Shown here: in pieces, positions 3,001-59,469 of the stretch
How the letters are laid out: every line of letters begins with the position of its first letter
How positions within the stretch are numbered: the first letter of the stretch is position 1
Source: Candidatus Falkowbacteria bacterium RIFOXYA2_FULL_47_19
GTDB lineage: Bacteria; Patescibacteriota; Patescibacteriia; Patescibacteriales; UBA12075
Length of the DNA: 64,000 bases
Assembly (NCBI GenBank): GCA_001780275.1
Contig: MFGB01000016.1
Location: forward strand, 27,205-91,204
Direction of reading: 5' to 3'
Program-made: the position numbers and the translations under genes
The notes under the pieces: generated by a model
Told to the model about the DNA's origin: nothing
The model's database searches: none
Seen by the model: the letters and a program-made list of their open reading frames with translations, nothing else

Positions 3001-5179
3001 GAATAATCCGGCCAATGGATTGGGTTTAAGCTGCGCTTATCAAGTGGCCACTAATACCTGCGATACCGCTGTTTGTCCGGCGCCTTTCGGCTGCATAAAC
3101 GAGGACGGTTCCGCGCCGACGCCCTTTAACGTATCGGGAAATCCCGATACCTGCGGTGTCTGCTGCTGCGATCCGGGCAGCGCGGATTGCGATCCTCTGG
3201 GTCTTGATTGCCAGGCCGATAAATCGCCTTGTACCGGCGGGAGCCGGGGACTCTGCTGCGGCTGCGATACCGATCTTGATTGTTCTTTGACGGGCATCCC
3301 TCCCGTCAACGTCGGTTGCGGGATCGATACCTGCTGTCGGGCCCGGCCCACCATCGTGCCTAATTCGGAGATGCCGGCCGATGACGCTGTCAACATTTGC
3401 CGCAACGCGGTTTTTTCCGTGACTTTCAATCAGCCGATGTCAGTCGCGAGTTTTTCCGGCAATGTCATCGTGGTGGGGGATTATATGGACGCTAATTGTC
3501 CGGCAGGCACGGAATACCTGGCTAGTGATATTCATATAAAAGACCGGAGTCGTTTGGCGTCCCGTATCTATAATAAGATGGGATGGCTCCTTTATCGGAC
3601 GATGGAAACCATCCTACCCTCTTTCCTGGCCGAAGCCTATACGCCCCCGGCCGCAAGCCGTAATTATTGCGCTATTGCCGGAAGTACCGGCGGTTCGACC
3701 TTAAGCGGGCAAACGACCCTGACCTTCACGCCTTCTTCTCTGTTGGAGGGAAACAGGCTTTATTACGTGATTATTAAAGGAGACGAGAATCTCGACTCGA
3801 ACCACGGCGTCCTTTCCGCTTGGGGGGTAGGTTTTAACGGCGGCCTGGACCTAACCTTTAACGGCATAACTTACCGCAATTCGCACGTCTGGTCATTCCG
3901 TACTTTAACCGAGCAGTCCCCCAATAACGGCGTTTGCGAACTTAACCGGGTTGACGTCAGGCCGGAATCTTATCTTTTCCAGACTACCCGCAACGATATC
4001 AATAATGAGAATGATACGAATCCGGCGGATCCGACTTTCGATAAGATCACGGACGCCGATAAGGTTTTTACGGCTTATCCGCTGAGCCGCGACGGCCAGG
4101 TTTTGGGAGCCATACCCGGTCTTTACGATTGGACCTGGACCTGGACGTCAGGCGCTCCCCAGGTAGCCGATATCGCGGCCCCGGGTCCGTTCCCGGTCGG
4201 AGGAGAAGATAAGAAATTGGTGGTTGCCGATGCTCAAACGACCGACGGCTATACTCTTCTTTCCGCCCGGGCCATAATCGGTTCGAGCGTCATACCGACT
4301 TCCCCGGCCGGCACGGTTTATCCCGGCAGTGCGGATGTTTATGTGTTTGTCTGCGAAAATCCCTGGCCTCCGGTCATCGGAGGATTGTGGGCGCCCTGGC
4401 AGGACGCGGCCGGGAATTGCACGCAGGCGGCGGGCGGCTGCGCCAATAGTTATAATTACGAGATCTATTATTGCCGCGACCAGGGTCAGGTCGGAACTTT
4501 CGACGATCTGCCCGCCATAACATATGACCGCGTGATCGTCGGCGAAAATCTTCCCGGTCTCCTTAAGGAATATTATTTCTTCCGGGAAGCGGCGCCGGTA
4601 TCGACGACTACCCTTAATGTGACCAATGGCGGCACAGGCGGAAGCGTGACCGCGACCTGGAATCCGCCGGTAGCCGGCGCCAGCGGTTATCGTCTTTACT
4701 GGGGAACGTCTCCGGGTTTTTACGGCAGCAATGTTGATGCCGGCAATATTTTAAGCTATAATATAACCGGTTTAACCGACGATATTCCTTATTATTTCAA
4801 TATCACGTCCTATAATGCCGCGGGAGCGGAAAGCGGGATGAACGGCGAATTCGGACCGGTCATTCCTAGGGACACGACAGCGCCGCTAGCCCCCACGGGA
4901 CTTACCGGTACTGCTGGCAACGGAGAGGCGCGTTTAAGCTGGAATCCCGATACAACGGGAAGTATAGCTGATTATACGGTTTATTTCCGGAGCGGTTCAG
5001 GCTGCGCCGGAGCTACTCCTCCGGCCTGCTACGGCAACTCGGAGGATATCGGGCTGGACGAAGAAATAATAATATCCGGATTGACGGCCGGCACTAATTA
5101 TTATTTCGCGATAACGGGGAGCGATGACGCCGGCAACGAAAGCGGATACTCGAATGAGGTTATGGTAATGCCCAATTAA
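2..5179 (+). CDS. giant Cys-rich surface/secreted protein with an N-terminal TM helix, IPT/TIG-like modules and two C-terminal fibronectin type III domains; probably 5'-partial in this window
   Basis: The ORF track gives 14..5179 (TTG start), but the frame stays open to base 2. Hydrophobic helix VAAVIGLIIILMSFAIASFVL. Dozens of Cys in CC/CxC/CxxC patterns. Three IPT-like units (PVIDWVSPPDGARGNLVTIGGRFFG, PYITGFEPSSGPPGQYVTIYGGGFG, PSICRITPIMGPNNSPVSLYGEYFG). Two FN3-like units (WNPPVAGASGYRLYWG..YYFNITSYNAAGAES and LSWNPD..YTVYF..YYFAITGSDDAGNES). Confidence 0.8.
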   Translation, partial: AKKTLVAAVIGLIIILMSFAIASFVLNSLLSATGGNACNPGDPPRSCGCYGTQVCQADNTWGPCSGVCGGGDVCCPLTGCQAPPCSPGGTVDCDSVPGPTCSSPDNMICDTFFTPGTYFCDPTACTCSPLGGFGDPCDGDSATAVCDATDSMCVSGLRCDDTVGSPTECRCIGAPVIDWVSPPDGARGNLVTIGGRFFGAAPGEVYFNGVLAPFPNTVNPNCTAFWSDNQVIVVVPAGAPMGANVIRLVRSSDTEEDTTDNARGPVIDPGFIVNNTVRPGLCQLSTTTGYYQDIITYQGINLPNGTRTYFGNYTDNIAALNSLFTDPQGRFGTAGVPDMRAGNTTTFASSTNPSNYLNFRVSTLTVTGPYITGFEPSSGPPGQYVTIYGGGFGAARGGSSVSFGATEADYDFPEDCADSVWTDHRVIVKVPDGISGSETIFMDVGSWPQIDTGTLNPAQFSITAGAPAPSICRITPIMGPNNSPVSLYGEYFGAADDTVWFHLNHGQTTHASWLDNPDPNADTIVTTVHQLAVTGPVSVEQSGSIGNSIDFTVGLCTNAPDPDAACGGVCCPSGTFRAGRCATDAAAMGGNGDGFVTIEDCYNRITSSVYEWEFTSETGTSTIPGGLGDPCYVDALTTPGCNPIYGPCQIGLYCDNDPASPTHCTCQTAAALESCSGYSMDQCLNSRFCPNSPGQCSTDPGGSTETVGTCDSSCSSVSPACAGGACSYNSVIDRCVDGSNCDLSPVFYDILNNPAQSYCADYSGAARWHLRTNLSCPTSTPGWIKIPPGNVCVNPNLPCLACANGLECLDDLVAPADEGVCAIAADICPPGATCAANRCELTSTPACECCCEIGQDARDCCVPLECTGSCGSGGSFGECSGCALAGTTQAERNDACNCTGTSGKFCDTADPGYPDGVCRDCTGLAGAADCLNIGVGSCCFDEKDNVDICRGGDGTILGGSCPYWNCLPVPNNDTCNTGAANAVIDGDYRDEVSCVAGCLMNNPANGLGLSCAYQVATNTCDTAVCPAPFGCINEDGSAPTPFNVSGNPDTCGVCCCDPGSADCDPLGLDCQADKSPCTGGSRGLCCGCDTDLDCSLTGIPPVNVGCGIDTCCRARPTIVPNSEMPADDAVNICRNAVFSVTFNQPMSVASFSGNVIVVGDYMDANCPAGTEYLASDIHIKDRSRLASRIYNKMGWLLYRTMETILPSFLAEAYTPPAASRNYCAIAGSTGGSTLSGQTTLTFTPSSLLEGNRLYYVIIKGDENLDSNHGVLSAWGVGFNGGLDLTFNGITYRNSHVWSFRTLTEQSPNNGVCELNRVDVRPESYLFQTTRNDINNENDTNPADPTFDKITDADKVFTAYPLSRDGQVLGAIPGLYDWTWTWTSGAPQVADIAAPGPFPVGGEDKKLVVADAQTTDGYTLLSARAIIGSSVIPTSPAGTVYPGSADVYVFVCENPWPPVIGGLWAPWQDAAGNCTQAAGGCANSYNYEIYYCRDQGQVGTFDDLPAITYDRVIVGENLPGLLKEYYFFREAAPVSTTTLNVTNGGTGGSVTATWNPPVAGASGYRLYWGTSPGFYGSNVDAGNILSYNITGLTDDIPYYFNITSYNAAGAESGMNGEFGPVIPRDTTAPLAPTGLTGTAGNGEARLSWNPDTTGSIADYTVYFRSGSGCAGATPPACYGNSEDIGLDEEIIISGLTAGTNYYFAITGSDDAGNESGYSNEVMVMPN

Positions 5180-12925: not shown

Positions 12926-13420
12926 ATGAAATGTCCCGCCTGCTATTATGAAGATACTAAGGTGGTCGATTCCCGGGTTGCCGCGGACGGATTATCGATT
13001 CGCCGGCGTCGGGAATGCCTGAAATGCGGTTTTAGGTTTTCCACCTACGAAGAGCTTATTATCCTTGATCTGACCATAATAAAGAGGGACGGACGTAAAG
13101 AACCCTATAGCCGGGAAAAACTAGTCCGCGGCATTATGAGATCGCTGGAGAAACGGCCGGTCACCGATGAAAAATTCAAAAAGTTAATTAATTCCATCGA
13201 AAGGGACCTACAGGTACTGCGCAAGGCTGAAATAACCACCAATGAGGTTGGTCAAATAATCCTGAAGCATCTTAAAAAGGTGGATCAGATCGCATATATA
13301 CGCTTCGCCAGCGTCTACCGGGCGTTTCAGGACGTAGAAGCCTTTCGGGAAGAATTAAATAAACTGCTTCCGAAAACTAAAGGAGGTAAGAAAAAGCGTC
13401 TCCCTGTCCGTAAAAATTAA
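12926..13420 (+). CDS. nrdR: transcriptional repressor NrdR
   Basis: N-terminal zinc ribbon MKCPACYYEDTKVVDSR..CLKCGFRFSTYE followed by an ATP-cone. Confidence 0.95.
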   Translation: MKCPACYYEDTKVVDSRVAADGLSIRRRRECLKCGFRFSTYEELIILDLTIIKRDGRKEPYSREKLVRGIMRSLEKRPVTDEKFKKLINSIERDLQVLRKAEITTNEVGQIILKHLKKVDQIAYIRFASVYRAFQDVEAFREELNKLLPKTKGGKKKRLPVRKN

Positions 13421-13453: not shown

Positions 13454-15577
13454 ATGCAAAACGAAATCTCTAAAATAAGGAAGCGTGACGGCAAGATCGC
13501 GGATTTCAACCGCGATAAGGTCACTACCGCCATTTACCGCTGTCTGGAGGCCGTCGGTAAACAAAATCGGGAAACGGCTGATAAATATTGTCGGGAGGTG
13601 GTTTTCAAACTTAACGAAAAATTCAACGCCAGAACCATCCCGGCCGTGGAAGAGGTTCAGGATCTGGTCGAAGAAGTTCTGATCGATAACCGGGAGATCA
13701 AGGCGGCTAAAGCTTTTATACTATTCCGCGATCAGCGCGCCCGGAATCGGGAAATGAACGCGATCGATTCCCGGATCGATTCGAACGATATCATCGAGAA
13801 TTATTTGAAGCAATCGGATTGGCGGGTAAAGGAGAATTCCAATATGGGTTACAGCCTGCAAGGACTCAATAATCATCTGGCCTCGATAATCTCTTCCAAC
13901 TACTGGCTCTCTAAGGTTTATTCCGCCAACATCCGGAGTGCTTATCAGGATGGCGACATCCACATTCATGACTTGCAATTGTTAGCGCCTTATTGTGCCG
14001 GCTGGGACCTTAAAGAGACTCTTCGACTCGGATTCGCCGGCGTTACCGGGAAAGTTGAATCGAAGCCTCCGAAACATTTCCGGACGGCCTTGGGACAGGT
14101 GGTTAATTTCTTTTATACTCTTCAGGGGGAGGTGGCCGGAGCCCAGGCTTTTTCCGGTTTCGATACCTTTTTAGCTCCTTTCGTCGGTTATGACAAACTT
14201 AATTATAAGGAAGTAAAGCAGGGACTCCAGGAGTTTTTATTTAACATAAACGTTCCGACCCGCGTGGGATTTCAGACGCCTTTTACCAATATTACCATGG
14301 ATATGATCCCGTCCAAGCAGACCGGCGAAGAGAACGTCGTTTATGGCGGCGAGATCCAGAAAGAGAAATATAAGGATTTCCAGGCTGAGATGGATATGAT
14401 CAATACGGCTTTCGCTGAGGTCATGATGGAAGGGGACGCCAAAGGCCGGGTATTCACATTTCCTATCCCGACCTACAATATTACGAAAAAATTCGATTGG
14501 GACTCGCCGGTAGCGGAAAAGGTTTTTGAAATGACGGCTAAATACGGCATTCCTTATTTTTCGAACTATATCAATTCCGATATGGATCCGGATGACGCCA
14601 GGAGCATGTGCTGCCGCTTAAGGCTCGATAACCGCGAGCTCAGGAAAAGGGGCGGCGGACTTTTTGGGGCTAATCCCTTAACCGGTTCGATCGGCGTAGT
14701 TACGATCAACCTGCCCCGCATCGGTTATTTATCCAAGGACAAAAAGGAATTTTTCGAGAGACTATATAATATGATGCAGATCTCTAAAGAAAGCCTCGAG
14801 ATGAAACGGCAGGTGCTGGAAGACCTGACTGACCGCGGACTTTATCCTTATGCCCGGCATTATCTTAAGAATATCAAAAAGCGCTTCGATCAATACTGGA
14901 AAAATCATTTTTCCACGATCGGCATAATCGGCATGAACGAAGCGCTCTTGAACTTCGCTCCGGTACGGAACAATATCGCGTCAGCTTCCGGCAAGGAATT
15001 CGCCCTGGAAATACTTAATTATATGAGGGAGCGTATCATGGATTACCAGAATTCCACAAATAATCTTTATAATCTGGAAGCGACCCCGGCCGAAGGCACC
15101 TCCAGGAGACTTGCCAGAATAGACAAGGATAAGCATGCGGATATTATCGTGGCCAACGAGGACGGAGTAAGGACGCGGAAGGCCTCTCCTTTCTATACGA
15201 ATTCCACACAATTGCCGGTTAATTATACGGATGACCTTTTCGAGGCGCTCGATCTGCAGGACGATATCCAAACGAAATATACGGGTGGTACGGTTTTACA
15301 CGCTTATTTGGGTGAAGCCTTGCCTTCAGCCGAAGCGGTAAAAAGACTGGTCCGTAAGATCGCCACTAATTATCAGTTGCCGTATTTTACCTTGACCCCG
15401 ACTTTTTCGATCTGTCCGAAACACGGTTATCTCGTCGGAGAACATCATTATTGCCCGAAATGCGACAAAGAGAACGGTTATAAGGGCGATTCCGTTCAAA
15501 ATCCGCCCGCAGCCGAAAAGCCGCCGATCGTTATCGACGTGGATATGGACCGAAAGCTGATCATGGATTTAGCTTAA
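13454..15577 (+). CDS. nrdD: anaerobic (class III) ribonucleoside-triphosphate reductase, catalytic body without the glycyl-radical tail
   Basis: N-terminal ATP-cone. Conserved core (CCRLRLD, GANPLTGSIGVVTINLPR, LYNLEATPAEG). C-terminal zinc site FSICPKHGYLVGEHHYCPKCD. No RVxGY glycyl-radical motif occurs before the stop at 15575-15577. Confidence 0.9.
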   Translation: MQNEISKIRKRDGKIADFNRDKVTTAIYRCLEAVGKQNRETADKYCREVVFKLNEKFNARTIPAVEEVQDLVEEVLIDNREIKAAKAFILFRDQRARNREMNAIDSRIDSNDIIENYLKQSDWRVKENSNMGYSLQGLNNHLASIISSNYWLSKVYSANIRSAYQDGDIHIHDLQLLAPYCAGWDLKETLRLGFAGVTGKVESKPPKHFRTALGQVVNFFYTLQGEVAGAQAFSGFDTFLAPFVGYDKLNYKEVKQGLQEFLFNINVPTRVGFQTPFTNITMDMIPSKQTGEENVVYGGEIQKEKYKDFQAEMDMINTAFAEVMMEGDAKGRVFTFPIPTYNITKKFDWDSPVAEKVFEMTAKYGIPYFSNYINSDMDPDDARSMCCRLRLDNRELRKRGGGLFGANPLTGSIGVVTINLPRIGYLSKDKKEFFERLYNMMQISKESLEMKRQVLEDLTDRGLYPYARHYLKNIKKRFDQYWKNHFSTIGIIGMNEALLNFAPVRNNIASASGKEFALEILNYMRERIMDYQNSTNNLYNLEATPAEGTSRRLARIDKDKHADIIVANEDGVRTRKASPFYTNSTQLPVNYTDDLFEALDLQDDIQTKYTGGTVLHAYLGEALPSAEAVKRLVRKIATNYQLPYFTLTPTFSICPKHGYLVGEHHYCPKCDKENGYKGDSVQNPPAAEKPPIVIDVDMDRKLIMDLA

Positions 15578-15653
15578 ATTATCAGCCGGTAAAAATTTTA
15601 TATAATATAAAAATAAAATAAATTGATATTGCCGTTTTTCGGCTCTAATCGAA

Positions 15654-15678
15654 AATCGTCAATCGTCAATCGTCAATC
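15654..15678 (+). repeat. tandem heptamer AATCGTC x3 (plus a partial unit)
   Basis: aatcgtcaatcgtcaatcgtcaatc, immediately upstream of the small glycyl-radical ORF. Confidence 0.85.
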
Positions 15679-15680
15679 CT

Positions 15681-15818
15681 ATGAGCCCGATAAAAACAAA
15701 AAGACAACCTTGCGAAGTGTTCAGCCGGGTAACCGGATATCTGCGGCCGGTAAGCCAATGGAATGACGGTAAACAGGCTGAATACGAATGCCGCAAGACC
15801 TTTAACGTAAACGAATAA
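15681..15818 (+). CDS. stand-alone glycyl-radical domain peptide of NrdD (45 aa, absent from the ORF track)
   Basis: Hand translation gives MSPIKTKRQPCEVFSRVTGYLRPVSQWNDGKQAEYECRKTFNVNE. This carries the RVxGY..WNxGK..E...R signature of the NrdD C-terminus. The frame differs from nrdD, and stops occur in all three frames across 15578-15626. Confidence 0.7.
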   Translation: MSPIKTKRQPCEVFSRVTGYLRPVSQWNDGKQAEYECRKTFNVNE

Positions 15819-15891
15819 GCGGACGATCCGCGATAGCGGACAAAGCGGAATAAAATGATGGCTACACGGATAGATCGCTCCATATTCCCCT

Positions 15892-16650
15892 ATGATCATC
15901 GGCGGTTTGCAAAAATTCAGTTTACTCGATTATCCCGGACAGGTAGCGGCGATCGTTTTTACCCAAGGCTGTAATTTCCGCTGTCCGTTTTGCTACAACC
16001 CAATGCTTGTCGTGCCCTCTATGGGCGGGACAAAAGATATTTTTGAATCTTCTTCGGAAGAAATCCAAAAGAGTTATTCTCAATTCCGCCCCCAGGGGCA
16101 GTTAAGCGAGGATGACTTTTTTGTTTTTCTTAAATCCCGCGCCGGAAAACTCGACGCCATAGTGATAACAGGCGGGGAACCCACCCTCCATCCCGATTTA
16201 ACGGGCTTCGCCGCCCGCATCAAAGCCTTGGGTTATAAAATAAAGCTTGATACCAACGGCACTAATCCGGAAATGATCGAAAAACTGTTTTTAGGAAATC
16301 TGGTCGATTATATCGCCATGGATATCAAGGGCGCTCCGGAGAAATATTCTCGGTTTACGGGAGATAAAGATGATTTGGATAAAATCAGGAAAAGTATTAT
16401 AATGATAAAGGGGGGTAGGGTGCCGTATGAATTCAGGACAACGGTCGTTCCCGCTTTTACACAGACAGAAGACATAGATCGAATGGGCGGCATGATCGAT
16501 GGCGCGGAAACGTGGTGGCTGCAGAGGTTTAAAAGCGACACCTCCCTGATCGATAAAGATCTTGAGAATACCGATATTCCGTCGGATGAGACTATGGAGG
16601 AAATGAGGTGTCGGGGATTAAAATACGTGAAGAATTGCCGTTTAAGGTAA
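15892..16650 (+). CDS. nrdG: anaerobic RNR activating enzyme (radical SAM)
   Basis: GCNFRCPFCYNP is the CxxxCxxC radical-SAM cluster motif. GGEPTLHP is also present. Located directly after nrdD. Confidence 0.88.
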   Translation: MIIGGLQKFSLLDYPGQVAAIVFTQGCNFRCPFCYNPMLVVPSMGGTKDIFESSSEEIQKSYSQFRPQGQLSEDDFFVFLKSRAGKLDAIVITGGEPTLHPDLTGFAARIKALGYKIKLDTNGTNPEMIEKLFLGNLVDYIAMDIKGAPEKYSRFTGDKDDLDKIRKSIIMIKGGRVPYEFRTTVVPAFTQTEDIDRMGGMIDGAETWWLQRFKSDTSLIDKDLENTDIPSDETMEEMRCRGLKYVKNCRLR

Positions 16651-38430: not shown

Positions 38431-38438
38431 AACATAAT

Positions 38439-38531
38439 GCGAATTTGCGAATTATGCGAATTCTACGAATATGCGAACAGTCCATGTTAATTCGCATGTT
38501 CGTAGGTTTGCATATAAATTCGTAGTTTCGC
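38439..38531. repeat. GCGAA x5 / TTCG(C/T) x4 inverted short-repeat array with an 8-9 nt period
   Basis: (G/A)CGAA starts at 38439, 38447, 38456, 38465 and 38473. TTCGC/TTCGT starts at 38491, 38499, 38519 and 38527. The array lies between the riboswitch terminator and the metK ATG. Confidence 0.75.
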
Positions 38532-38546
38532 ATCATAACCAAAAAT

Positions 38547-58950: not shown

Positions 58951-59469
58951 TTAGAGAGCATCGCCGCCGAAAAGCTGATCCAGAATAAAGATATCGCCCA
59001 GATTGGCGTTATCGCCATTGCCGAATAATCTGCTCATGATGAAAAGCTCTCCCAAACCGCCGCTGCCGGTATCTAGTATGCCGCCGCTCTCTCCGGAAGT
59101 GCCATCGTTAAAGAGCTGATCCAGGATAAAGATATCGCCCAGATTGGCGTCGGTGTCATCGCCGCCGAAGAGCCTGTCCAAAACGAATAATTCTCCCAGG
59201 TCGCTGCTGCCGCTGCCGGTATCTAGTATGCCGCCGCTCTCTCCGGAAGTGCCATCGTTAAAGAGCTGATCCAGGATAAAGATATCTCCCAGATTCGCGT
59301 TGGTGTCATCGCCGCCGAAGAGCCTGTCCAAAACGAATAATTCTCCCAAGTCGCTGCTGCCGCTGCCGCTATCGAGTATGCCCGCGTTAGCCGTAACCGG
59401 CGCGGTTATGACGGCGCCGATTGCCAGAGCGAATACCGCTAGACTGGCAATTATTTTTTTTCCTACCAT
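58951..59469 (-). CDS. secreted LGDLFxLDxLF-repeat protein, paralog 4 (three tandem 50-aa units)
   Basis: Likely start is MVGKKIIASLAVFALAIGAVITAPVTANA at 59469; the track uses GTG at 59514. The unit GILDxGSGSSDLGELFVLDRLFGGDDTxANLGDIFILDQLFNDGTSGESG occurs twice nearly identically (150-bp DNA repeat, 59083-59382), followed by a diverged third unit. Confidence 0.8.
   Translation of the reverse strand: MVGKKIIASLAVFALAIGAVITAPVTANAGILDSGSGSSDLGELFVLDRLFGGDDTNANLGDIFILDQLFNDGTSGESGGILDTGSGSSDLGELFVLDRLFGGDDTDANLGDIFILDQLFNDGTSGESGGILDTGSGGLGELFIMSRLFGNGDNANLGDIFILDQLFGGDAL

Follow-up and report, generated by a model that had tools for sequence, protein, structure and literature searches.

The window, i.e. 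the whole 64 kb stretch of the genome of Candidatus Falkowbacteria bacterium RIFOXYA2_FULL_47_19 that was analysed, and to which all statements on this genome are limited, contains a locus for a class III (anaerobic) ribonucleotide reductase (RNR). The catalytic protein NrdD is encoded there in two pieces, namely a large 'body' that ends without the glycyl-radical loop and a separate open reading frame (ORF) of 45 codons that holds this loop. These two ORFs lie in different reading frames, 103 nucleotides (nt) apart, and are followed by the gene for the activase NrdG; together with nrdR, all are on the plus strand. The features of the locus are as follows (lengths of products in amino acids, aa).

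12926-13420, plus strand: nrdR, coding for the repressor of nrd transcription, 164 aa, directly 5' of nrdD (Pfam Zn_ribbon_NrdR, E 5.8e-21; ATP-cone, E 5.6e-20)
13454-15577, plus strand: nrdD body, 707 aa, with ATP-cone, ten-stranded barrel, finger loop SMCCR and zinc ribbon, without the glycyl-radical loop
15413-15463, plus strand: zinc ribbon C654-P-K-H657...C667-P-K-C670, the last element common to the body and contiguous NrdD proteins
15464-15574, plus strand: body-specific C-terminal tail, residues 671-707, with a DKENGY start, a variable acidic/proline-rich linker and a DRKLIMDLA end
15548-15574, plus strand: body end motif DRKLIMDLA
15578-15680: intercistronic spacer, 103 nt, AT-rich, with stops in all three forward frames
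15681-15818, plus strand: glycyl-radical peptide gene, 45 aa (MSPIKTKRQPCEVFSRVTGYLRPVSQWNDGKQAEYECRKTFNVNE), with its own ATG, matching the C-terminal positions of Pfam NRDD and NF006126
15735-15737, plus strand: predicted radical Gly19 codon of the peptide gene
15892-16650, plus strand: nrdG, radical S-adenosylmethionine (radical-SAM) activase, 252 aa, cluster motif CNFRCPFC (TIGR02495, i.e. NrdG2, 195 bits against a cutoff of 131; Pfam Radical_SAM)

The 707 aa product scores 1045 bits against the NCBIfam equivalog NF006126, about twice the cutoff of 548, with its residues 6-673 aligned to model positions 3-650 of 684; it also matches TIGR02487 (519 bits, cutoff 326), the ATP-cone and Pfam NRDD (E 2.6e-182, positions 1-531 of 562). 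The original prediction, made from the sequence of this stretch, had described an NrdD with an ATP-cone, catalytic core and zinc ribbon that terminates at 15577 without a glycyl-radical motif, and these matches agree with it. In an alignment with split and fused relatives, the four ligands of the zinc ribbon (CPKH-x9-CPKC, residues 654-670: C654, H657, C667 and C670) are invariant, as are C386, C387 and R388 of the finger loop SMCCR (residues 384-388; 13 split and fused relatives); the same holds for the NLEATPAE, YTNS and YTGGT motifs when the body is compared with fused relatives. The protein is 100% identical to P0090, a 'ribonucleoside triphosphate reductase' of Candidatus Falkowbacteria bacterium RIFOXYB2_FULL_47_14. 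No RVxGY motif is found in the body, nor in any of its 120 best database homologues (71-78% identity, 686-1012 aa).

Beyond the fourth zinc ligand the body continues for 37 residues without a counterpart in the NrdD model. This tail had been described as non-conserved, a view that is too simple. Its start, D-[EQ]-E-I-G-Y, recurs among the 120 homologues (D in 120 of 120, the third-position E in 116, the fifth-position G in 111), and 78 of them end in an [ED]-R-x-[IL]-I-x-A-[LMI]-A motif, of which DRKLIMDLA is the version in the window; the middle is an acidic linker of variable length, giving tails of 19-63 aa after the CxxC. Some NrdD bodies are far longer than the usual ~700 aa, at 1010-1194 aa (L021:729-3923, L031:933-3962, L153:433-3462, L167 and L168), and these probably carry inteins or other large insertions. 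Several bodies (e.g. P0096, P0148, P0120 and P0181) are found on long contigs, of 0.45-1.06 Mb.

The part of NrdD absent from the body is exactly that matched by the 45-codon ORF in another frame, where the radical motif had been predicted to lie. The peptide aligns with positions 649-683 of 684 of NF006126 and 531-562 of 562 of Pfam NRDD (E 6.4e-10), so that the two ORFs, when compared with the family models as the original prediction had proposed, are exactly complementary parts of one NrdD (3-650 plus 649-683, and 1-531 plus 531-562, respectively). At E ≤ 0.1 the only Pfam profile that matches the peptide is NRDD, with no match to the pyruvate formate-lyase (PFL) and Gly_radical families, and neither NCBIfam nor Pfam holds a model for the peptide alone. 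The activase gene is also where it had been placed, at 15892, as judged by its TIGR02495 score; this match falls in two stretches, there being an extra ~35 residues after CNFRCPFC (MLVVPSMGGTKDIFESSSEEIQKSYSQFRPQGQ).

Small ORFs of this kind are not confined to the window. A search with the peptide gave 89 clusters of stand-alone homologues, all of 42-74 aa and with a start codon, which share the near-invariant core CEV[FY]SR[VI]xGYLRPVxQWNDGKQAE; 14 peptide residues are invariant, among them S15, R16, G19 and Y20, and the window peptide includes the stretch MSPIKTKRQPCEVFSR. In the Falkowbacteria group the N-terminus is conserved as well, reading MSPIxTKRQxC. A profile search covering 1.84 billion sequences, each of which represents a cluster at 50% identity, returned 4953 hits; among the best 150 of these, 149 are 45-116 aa long and one is full length, and the 143 that were new all begin with a start-codon residue. 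Stand-alone peptides form at least ~140 clusters at 50% identity. The exact product of the window is absent from public collections as a called gene, in agreement with its description as unannotated, and pipelines call the peptide gene inconsistently. Some small ORFs are labelled 'anaerobic ribonucleoside-triphosphate reductase', including one that is 98% identical to the window peptide, which means that the homology has already been noticed by software. No Shine-Dalgarno-like motif precedes the window peptide gene, but this is normal here, as only 8 of the 44 genes in the window have one.

The labelled product that is 98% identical to the window peptide comes from an independently assembled sister metagenome-assembled genome (MAG) of Falkowbacteria (GCA_043801965.1, locus L081), which has the same five genes in an identical layout, with nrdR before nrdD. 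This MAG bears directly on whether an insertion or a mis-join simply broke a contiguous nrdD, leaving the pieces to decay as a pseudogene or an assembly artefact, an option that the original prediction had listed and that the different frames, the AT-rich and repeat-bearing spacer with stops in all frames, and the lack of a call for the small ORF in the source record would suit. The two genomes are 96% identical over 461 nt, and 11 of the 12 changed peptide codons are synonymous; in the peptide core the nonsynonymous divergence (dN) is 0 against a synonymous divergence (dS) of 0.45. More generally, pairwise comparison of the 28-codon core gives a median dN/dS of 0.09 (42 pairs with unsaturated dS). 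Such purifying selection on the peptide, a body score of about twice the equivalog cutoff, the missing radical tail in 120 of the 120 nearest homologues and the presence of a split at the same junction in 26 species representatives (see below) all argue against decay, and this explanation was rejected as vanishingly improbable.

The distribution of the split was studied by scanning GTDB, with one genome per species, using the peptide alignment. At least 596 loci were confirmed, of which the best 80 were kept and 73 could be classified; 26 of these 73 are split at the same junction and 47 are fused, figures that, being drawn from the best-scoring loci, are biased towards sequences like the query. 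The hosts of split loci include Falkowbacteria, other Patescibacteria, Microgenomates, Dojkabacteria, Saccharibacteria, a Hippea MAG and a Bacillota MAG, as well as DPANN archaea (Woesearchaeota, Nanobdellota and one unclassified archaeon). Each of the 27 split loci has an adjacent gene of the nrdG type, with a CxxxCxxC radical-SAM motif, that runs in the same direction. The order is body-peptide-nrdG in 26 of them and body-nrdG-peptide in the other, the Bacillota MAG (L023:70-1747), where a complete nrdG overlaps the end of the body and is followed by a peptide gene with a GTG start. In a viral contig (L147:3232-6422) the peptide gene is instead found upstream of the body.

The contiguous relatives show where the chain is broken. 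Their junction reads CPxC-TIKQP-CEVYSRVVGY in Paceibacterota and relatives, or CPTCGANCEVYSR in Bathyarchaeia, such that the break corresponds to a connector of 3-5 residues directly after the fourth zinc ligand; in the alignment, the equivalent position in the NrdD of Thermotoga maritima lies between CPVCG and KAKVDEYMRIVGY. In crystal and cryo-electron microscopy structures the zinc ribbon gives way to the buried Gly loop at this point (PMC4493059, PMC11226230). Two fused proteins, L034 (CSICDEENGYVEGMVVDEKRQKCEVF) and L027, have a connector that is longer and of the kind seen in the tails of split bodies. In the split locus L022, the body ends in DEEAGYKEGMSFDEK, and a stop and 23 nt separate it from a peptide containing MSNTKVARQKCEVY; a fused form with a linker and a split form can thus differ by little beyond one stop and one start codon. 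Furthermore, in a rough neighbour-joining tree most split bodies are grouped, with the fused L034 among them, and split and fused-with-linker forms are interleaved. That Hippea, Bacillota and the Falkowbacteria group differ from one another in tails and gene order suggests more than one origin of the split. In Hippea, the end of the body (KEEKLEEIESEIQRLKRQLELE) and that of the peptide (MMTRDEILKRIEELEKAKKEIK) look like charged, heptad-like helices that complement each other. At this locus (L020:230-640) the heptad-like pattern extends over the body tail KEEKLEEIESEIQRLKRQLELEMENGQ and the peptide N-terminus MMTRDEILKRIEELEKAKKEIKGTP-CEVY, two segments that could zip together, and the viral peptides L138, L139 and L159 have an N-terminal helix like that of Hippea.

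The spacers between the two pieces vary greatly. In cellular split loci their lengths are 0, 8, 11, 14, 16, 18, 23, 29, 35, 59, 59, 65, 70, 72, 93, 96, 103 and 103 nt, with longer ones of 113, 117, 124, 163, 179, 187 and 355 nt; relative frames 0, 1 and 2 all occur, and the sequences are unrelated, with no conserved element. This variation is relevant to the suggestion, also made in the original prediction, that the spacer is removed or bypassed, and more generally to any route by which a single polypeptide would result, be it bypassing or frameshifting, RNA splicing or split-intein trans-splicing. Introns, inteins and bypassing are found in phage and bacterial nrd genes, T4 nrdD containing a group I intron, and a PDB sequence search with the peptide matched DnaE split inteins at E ~1 and nothing else. 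These intein matches were judged to be due to chance, given their E value and their position on the NrdD-homologous Gly loop. There is no conserved Cys/Ser at the N-junction or His-Asn at the C-junction, and the extensions (19-63 aa on bodies, 3-25 aa on peptides) are far too short and too variable for an intein. A permissive Rfam scan of positions 15200-16000 gave only chance-level matches to eukaryotic families, with no intron or riboswitch in or around the spacer, and the spacers across loci share neither sequence nor structure. Each peptide ORF has its own start codon and a conserved N-terminus, while a nrdG gene between the pieces (L023) and a reversed order (L147) are difficult to reconcile with any read-through. 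Production of a single chain was rejected as extremely improbable; the range of spacer lengths, frames and sequences and the orders in L023 and L147 instead indicate that the two pieces are separate cistrons.

In the window, the spacer is AT-rich (28% G+C), and each of the three forward frames is closed by stops, as had been described. The promoter-like hexamers (TTATCA-16-TATAAT) that had been pointed out are indeed present at 15579-15606, and the sister MAG has kept them. Sites of this kind, however, occur here at chance frequency, nine being found in the region against an expectation of 6.9 +/- 3.1. A scan for terminators found none after the body, and the fold of the spacer RNA is unremarkable (z-score -1.8), although it has a small GCCG/CGGC hairpin at 15631-15643. 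The AATCGTC heptad repeat is real, occupying 15654-15678 with a period of 7, 3.6 copies and 100% matches. The spacer of the sister MAG is also 103 nt long and differs by 8 substitutions, some of which fall in the middle heptad, where the repeat is degenerate.

The heptad repeat was considered as a mobile or regulatory element responsible for the split, and rejected, as equivalent arrays are present in many other intergenic regions, both in the window and in the loci compared; short tandem arrays are hence a general trait of these Patescibacteria genomes, rather than of the split. Short tandem runs of heptamers or octamers are also present in several other spacers, and an inverted array is frequently close by. 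The arrays found in intergenic regions (window 15654-15678 and 38437-38538; L002:3816-3996 and 4136-4220; L004:3650-3996; L005:3854-3995; L012:739-823 and 3853-3940) consist of 7-8 nt units whose sequence varies by site, and with an inverted array they form long imperfect hairpins (in L004, 43-nt arms with 72% complementarity). Comparison of two closely related spacers, L006:368-461 and L003:3941-4000, reveals a 34-nt insertion in L006 with a near-perfect 28-nt palindrome (CCCCCTACACTTACGTGTAAGTGTGGGG), which looks like a small hairpin element inserted between the nrdD pieces.

Taken together, these comparisons make it very probable that the locus encodes an obligate two-subunit class III RNR, in which a body lacking the radical loop would be complemented in trans by a separately translated radical peptide. 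The peptide holds the RVxGY loop together with the short segment that comes after it in contiguous enzymes, and would thereby provide what forms the final 35-40 residues of other NrdD chains. This option had been the first offered in the original prediction, and the sister MAG, the homologues, the split loci elsewhere and the evidence of selection all support it. By homology with the covalent loop of the T4, T. maritima and Prevotella copri enzymes, the peptide would insert its Gly loop into the barrel of the body; NrdG, with S-adenosylmethionine, would abstract a hydrogen from Gly19, and nucleotides would be reduced by the thiyl radical that the glycyl radical then generates on the SMCCR finger loop. 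The amphipathic motif at the C-terminus of the body and the MSPIxTKRQxC sequence of the peptide probably aid the association of the two chains.

Several points weigh against this interpretation. Translation of the peptide, its assembly with the body and radical formation on the free or bound peptide are steps that we infer from sequence. Structure prediction did not help, as AlphaFold2 gave unusable models both with a concatenation of body and peptide as a single sequence (mean predicted local distance difference test score, pLDDT, 36.8) and with an alignment that combined 92 bodies and 56 peptides in blocks (pLDDT 53.3, barrel <50). A few of the short database proteins are assembly artefacts or fragments (e.g. 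P0210, P0215, P0236 and P0279). The bias of the 80 best-scoring loci, already mentioned, affects the proportion of split forms, and the tree, which is rough and disturbed by intein-bearing sequences, gives no count of the origins of the split. Finally, a second RNR or a complete nrdD could lie beyond the visible 64 kb.

Even if the split enzyme functions, the split need not be of any benefit. Tight binding of the Gly loop could allow the chain to tolerate a break, which would then have spread by drift and horizontal transfer as a selectively neutral fission. The interleaving of split and fused-with-linker forms that differ by little beyond a stop and a start codon, along with the lack of a conserved regulatory element in the spacers, favours such neutrality. 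The conserved terminal motifs gained by body tails after the split argue in the other direction, without being decisive; the persistence of the split in very divergent lineages, and the viruses that carry the peptide alone (see below), hint, no more decisively, that a free peptide is of use. Overall, neutral fission has to be regarded as a serious contender, albeit with somewhat less than an even chance of being correct. A possible advantage of the obligate two-subunit arrangement would be the cheap replacement of a loop damaged by oxygen. Oxygen cleaves glycyl-radical enzymes at the radical glycine (PMC13450708), so that after exposure only the 45-aa peptide would need replacing, an attractive possibility.

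The locus shares with canonical class III NrdD/NrdG systems (T4, Escherichia coli, T. maritima, P. copri) the profile family, the ATP-cone, the barrel, the SMCCR double-Cys loop, the RVxGY motif and the adjacent NrdG. The zinc ribbon, C-x2-H...C-x2-C, is of the same type of ligand pattern as that of T. maritima NrdD, where the site is CxxxHx6CxxC (PMC4493059). In characterised NrdD proteins, the zinc ribbon and Gly loop form one C-terminal domain of the same chain (PMC11226230, PMC4493059), whereas the chain in the window stops beyond the fourth zinc ligand, with its short tail, and the Gly loop is a separate 45-aa product. In all respects open to testing the system qualifies as a class III RNR, the one exception being that its radical motif lies off the catalytic chain.

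The closest parallels in function are GrcA (YfiD) and Y06I of phage T4, spare-part proteins for PFL which, like the proposed role of the peptide, are small stand-alone radical carriers that are activated by a radical-SAM enzyme and complement a large barrel in trans. The likeness to GrcA that had been drawn in the original prediction holds to this extent. However, GrcA is homologous to the C-terminus of PFL and mimics its whole radical domain, rescuing a parent enzyme that has such a domain of its own, whereas the peptide is homologous to NrdD, comprises the Gly loop only and would, in the absence of this loop from the body, be obligatory as the only source of the radical glycine rather than a spare. 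Glycyl-radical enzymes are thought to bear the radical on the C-terminal domain of the catalytic chain, with GrcA of PFL as the only known exception; the peptide, if it acts as proposed, would be a second, and obligate, kind of trans-acting radical carrier. It would also provide a natural minimal substrate for NrdG, and a direct test of how the Gly loop leaves and re-enters the barrel.

Other RNRs with a divided catalytic subunit are known. In the class II NrdJa/NrdJb of Pseudomonas aeruginosa, two adjacent ORFs have to act jointly, and the C-terminal piece bears an element required for turnover (cited in PMC9669993). Although this is likewise a catalytic subunit in two ORFs, NrdJa/NrdJb is a class II, B12-dependent enzyme with another break point, and its second piece is much larger and without a radical site. 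The nrdA of Aeromonas phage Aeh1 is reportedly split by the homing endonuclease gene mobE and functions as two polypeptides. There the mobile endonuclease gene is still inside, unlike the short, non-coding and mutually unrelated spacers of the split nrdD loci. No description of a split NrdD was found in the full-text literature, subscription journals being outside the coverage of this search. Strong comparative evidence points to a widespread, conserved two-gene form of a known enzyme that is undescribed for class III RNR in the literature searched.

Recognition of such an enzyme would also correct genome annotation: in many Patescibacteria and DPANN the loop-less NrdD has the appearance of a truncated protein, and a call for the peptide is often missing. 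One survey of RNRs retained only sequences of 400-1100 residues (PMC9531940); with length filters of this kind, the peptide is discarded.

Stand-alone radical peptides are also found in viruses. When IMG/VR viral contigs were scanned with the peptide alignment, 145 loci were confirmed, of which the best 80 were analysed (L082-L161). A short stand-alone ORF is present in 77 of these 80 (e.g. L083:3501-3635 and L085:3501-3635), and in 74 of the 80 hidden Markov models for the NrdD body and NrdG found nothing within ~3.5 kb. On the 101-kb contig of L083, the peptide gene is flanked by a primase gene and recA, and is preceded by genes for a replication initiator and a DnaB-like helicase. When bodies of the same subfamily were sought by a pattern scan, 54 viral loci were identified, only four of whose contigs were also on the peptide list. 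By its sequence and context, the viral peptide may be a radical 'spare part' for the class III RNR of the host. In GenBank phages, a search with the peptide gave three weak matches, two in genes annotated as NrdD and the third in an unannotated record.

A second type of stand-alone protein, of ~95-160 aa, combines a CxxC...CxxC zinc ribbon of its own with the CEVYSRVVGY loop after it, and matches NRDD positions 510-562. It is represented among cellular loci and database proteins (L011, L026:3644-4126 and L049:3731-4138; P0256, P0322 and P0255) and in viruses (L089, L093, L096, L109, L114, L119, L130, L131, L134, L140, L142 and L148). In Desulfobacterota it has no nrdD within 4 kb, and shows conserved synteny beside a transglycosylase-like gene. 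From these features, the second type looks like a true GrcA analogue for class III RNR. According to a 2026 review, the formate lyases form the sole class of glycyl-radical enzymes with known spare-part proteins (PMC13450708).

In Desulfobacterota and many viral contigs, stand-alone peptides occur with no body next to them, which makes an autonomous role plausible in some settings. It could be supposed that this is the only role of the peptide in Falkowbacteria as well, rescuing a complete NrdD encoded elsewhere, in the part of the genome outside the visible 64 kb, while the loop-less body is inactive or has another role. Yet the body retains all catalytic and allosteric features and is under constraint, 26 of the 27 cellular split loci have the peptide gene placed between body and nrdG, and none of the 120 closest homologues of the body bears a radical tail. 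Moreover, organisms of this group have small genomes, in which it would be unusual to find a second nrdD. A role purely as a spare part is highly unlikely at this locus.

A more elaborate version of the two-subunit arrangement would have the peptide act as an exchangeable radical cofactor, activated by NrdG possibly while free, then plugging into the barrel and being replaced after cleavage; viruses would encode it, or the version with both zinc ribbon and loop, among their replication genes so as to boost or re-arm the reductase of the host. This proposal is tentative, and on balance rather doubtful. Were it correct, ribonucleotide reduction would gain its first spare-part or auxiliary radical proteins, and their genes would rank with the smallest phage-borne metabolic genes. 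For the obligate split more generally, the implications would be that repair after exposure to oxygen could be cheap for organisms whose genomes are tiny, and that their viruses could manipulate the supply of deoxynucleoside triphosphates.

The surroundings of the locus consist of ordinary chromosomal genes, such as ftsA, ftsZ and one for a phosphoribosyltransferase. Elsewhere in the window, a minus-strand ORF of 172 aa (58951-59469), for which no Pfam match was found, contains a 150-bp tandem repeat at 59059-59382, present in 2.2 copies that are 96% identical.

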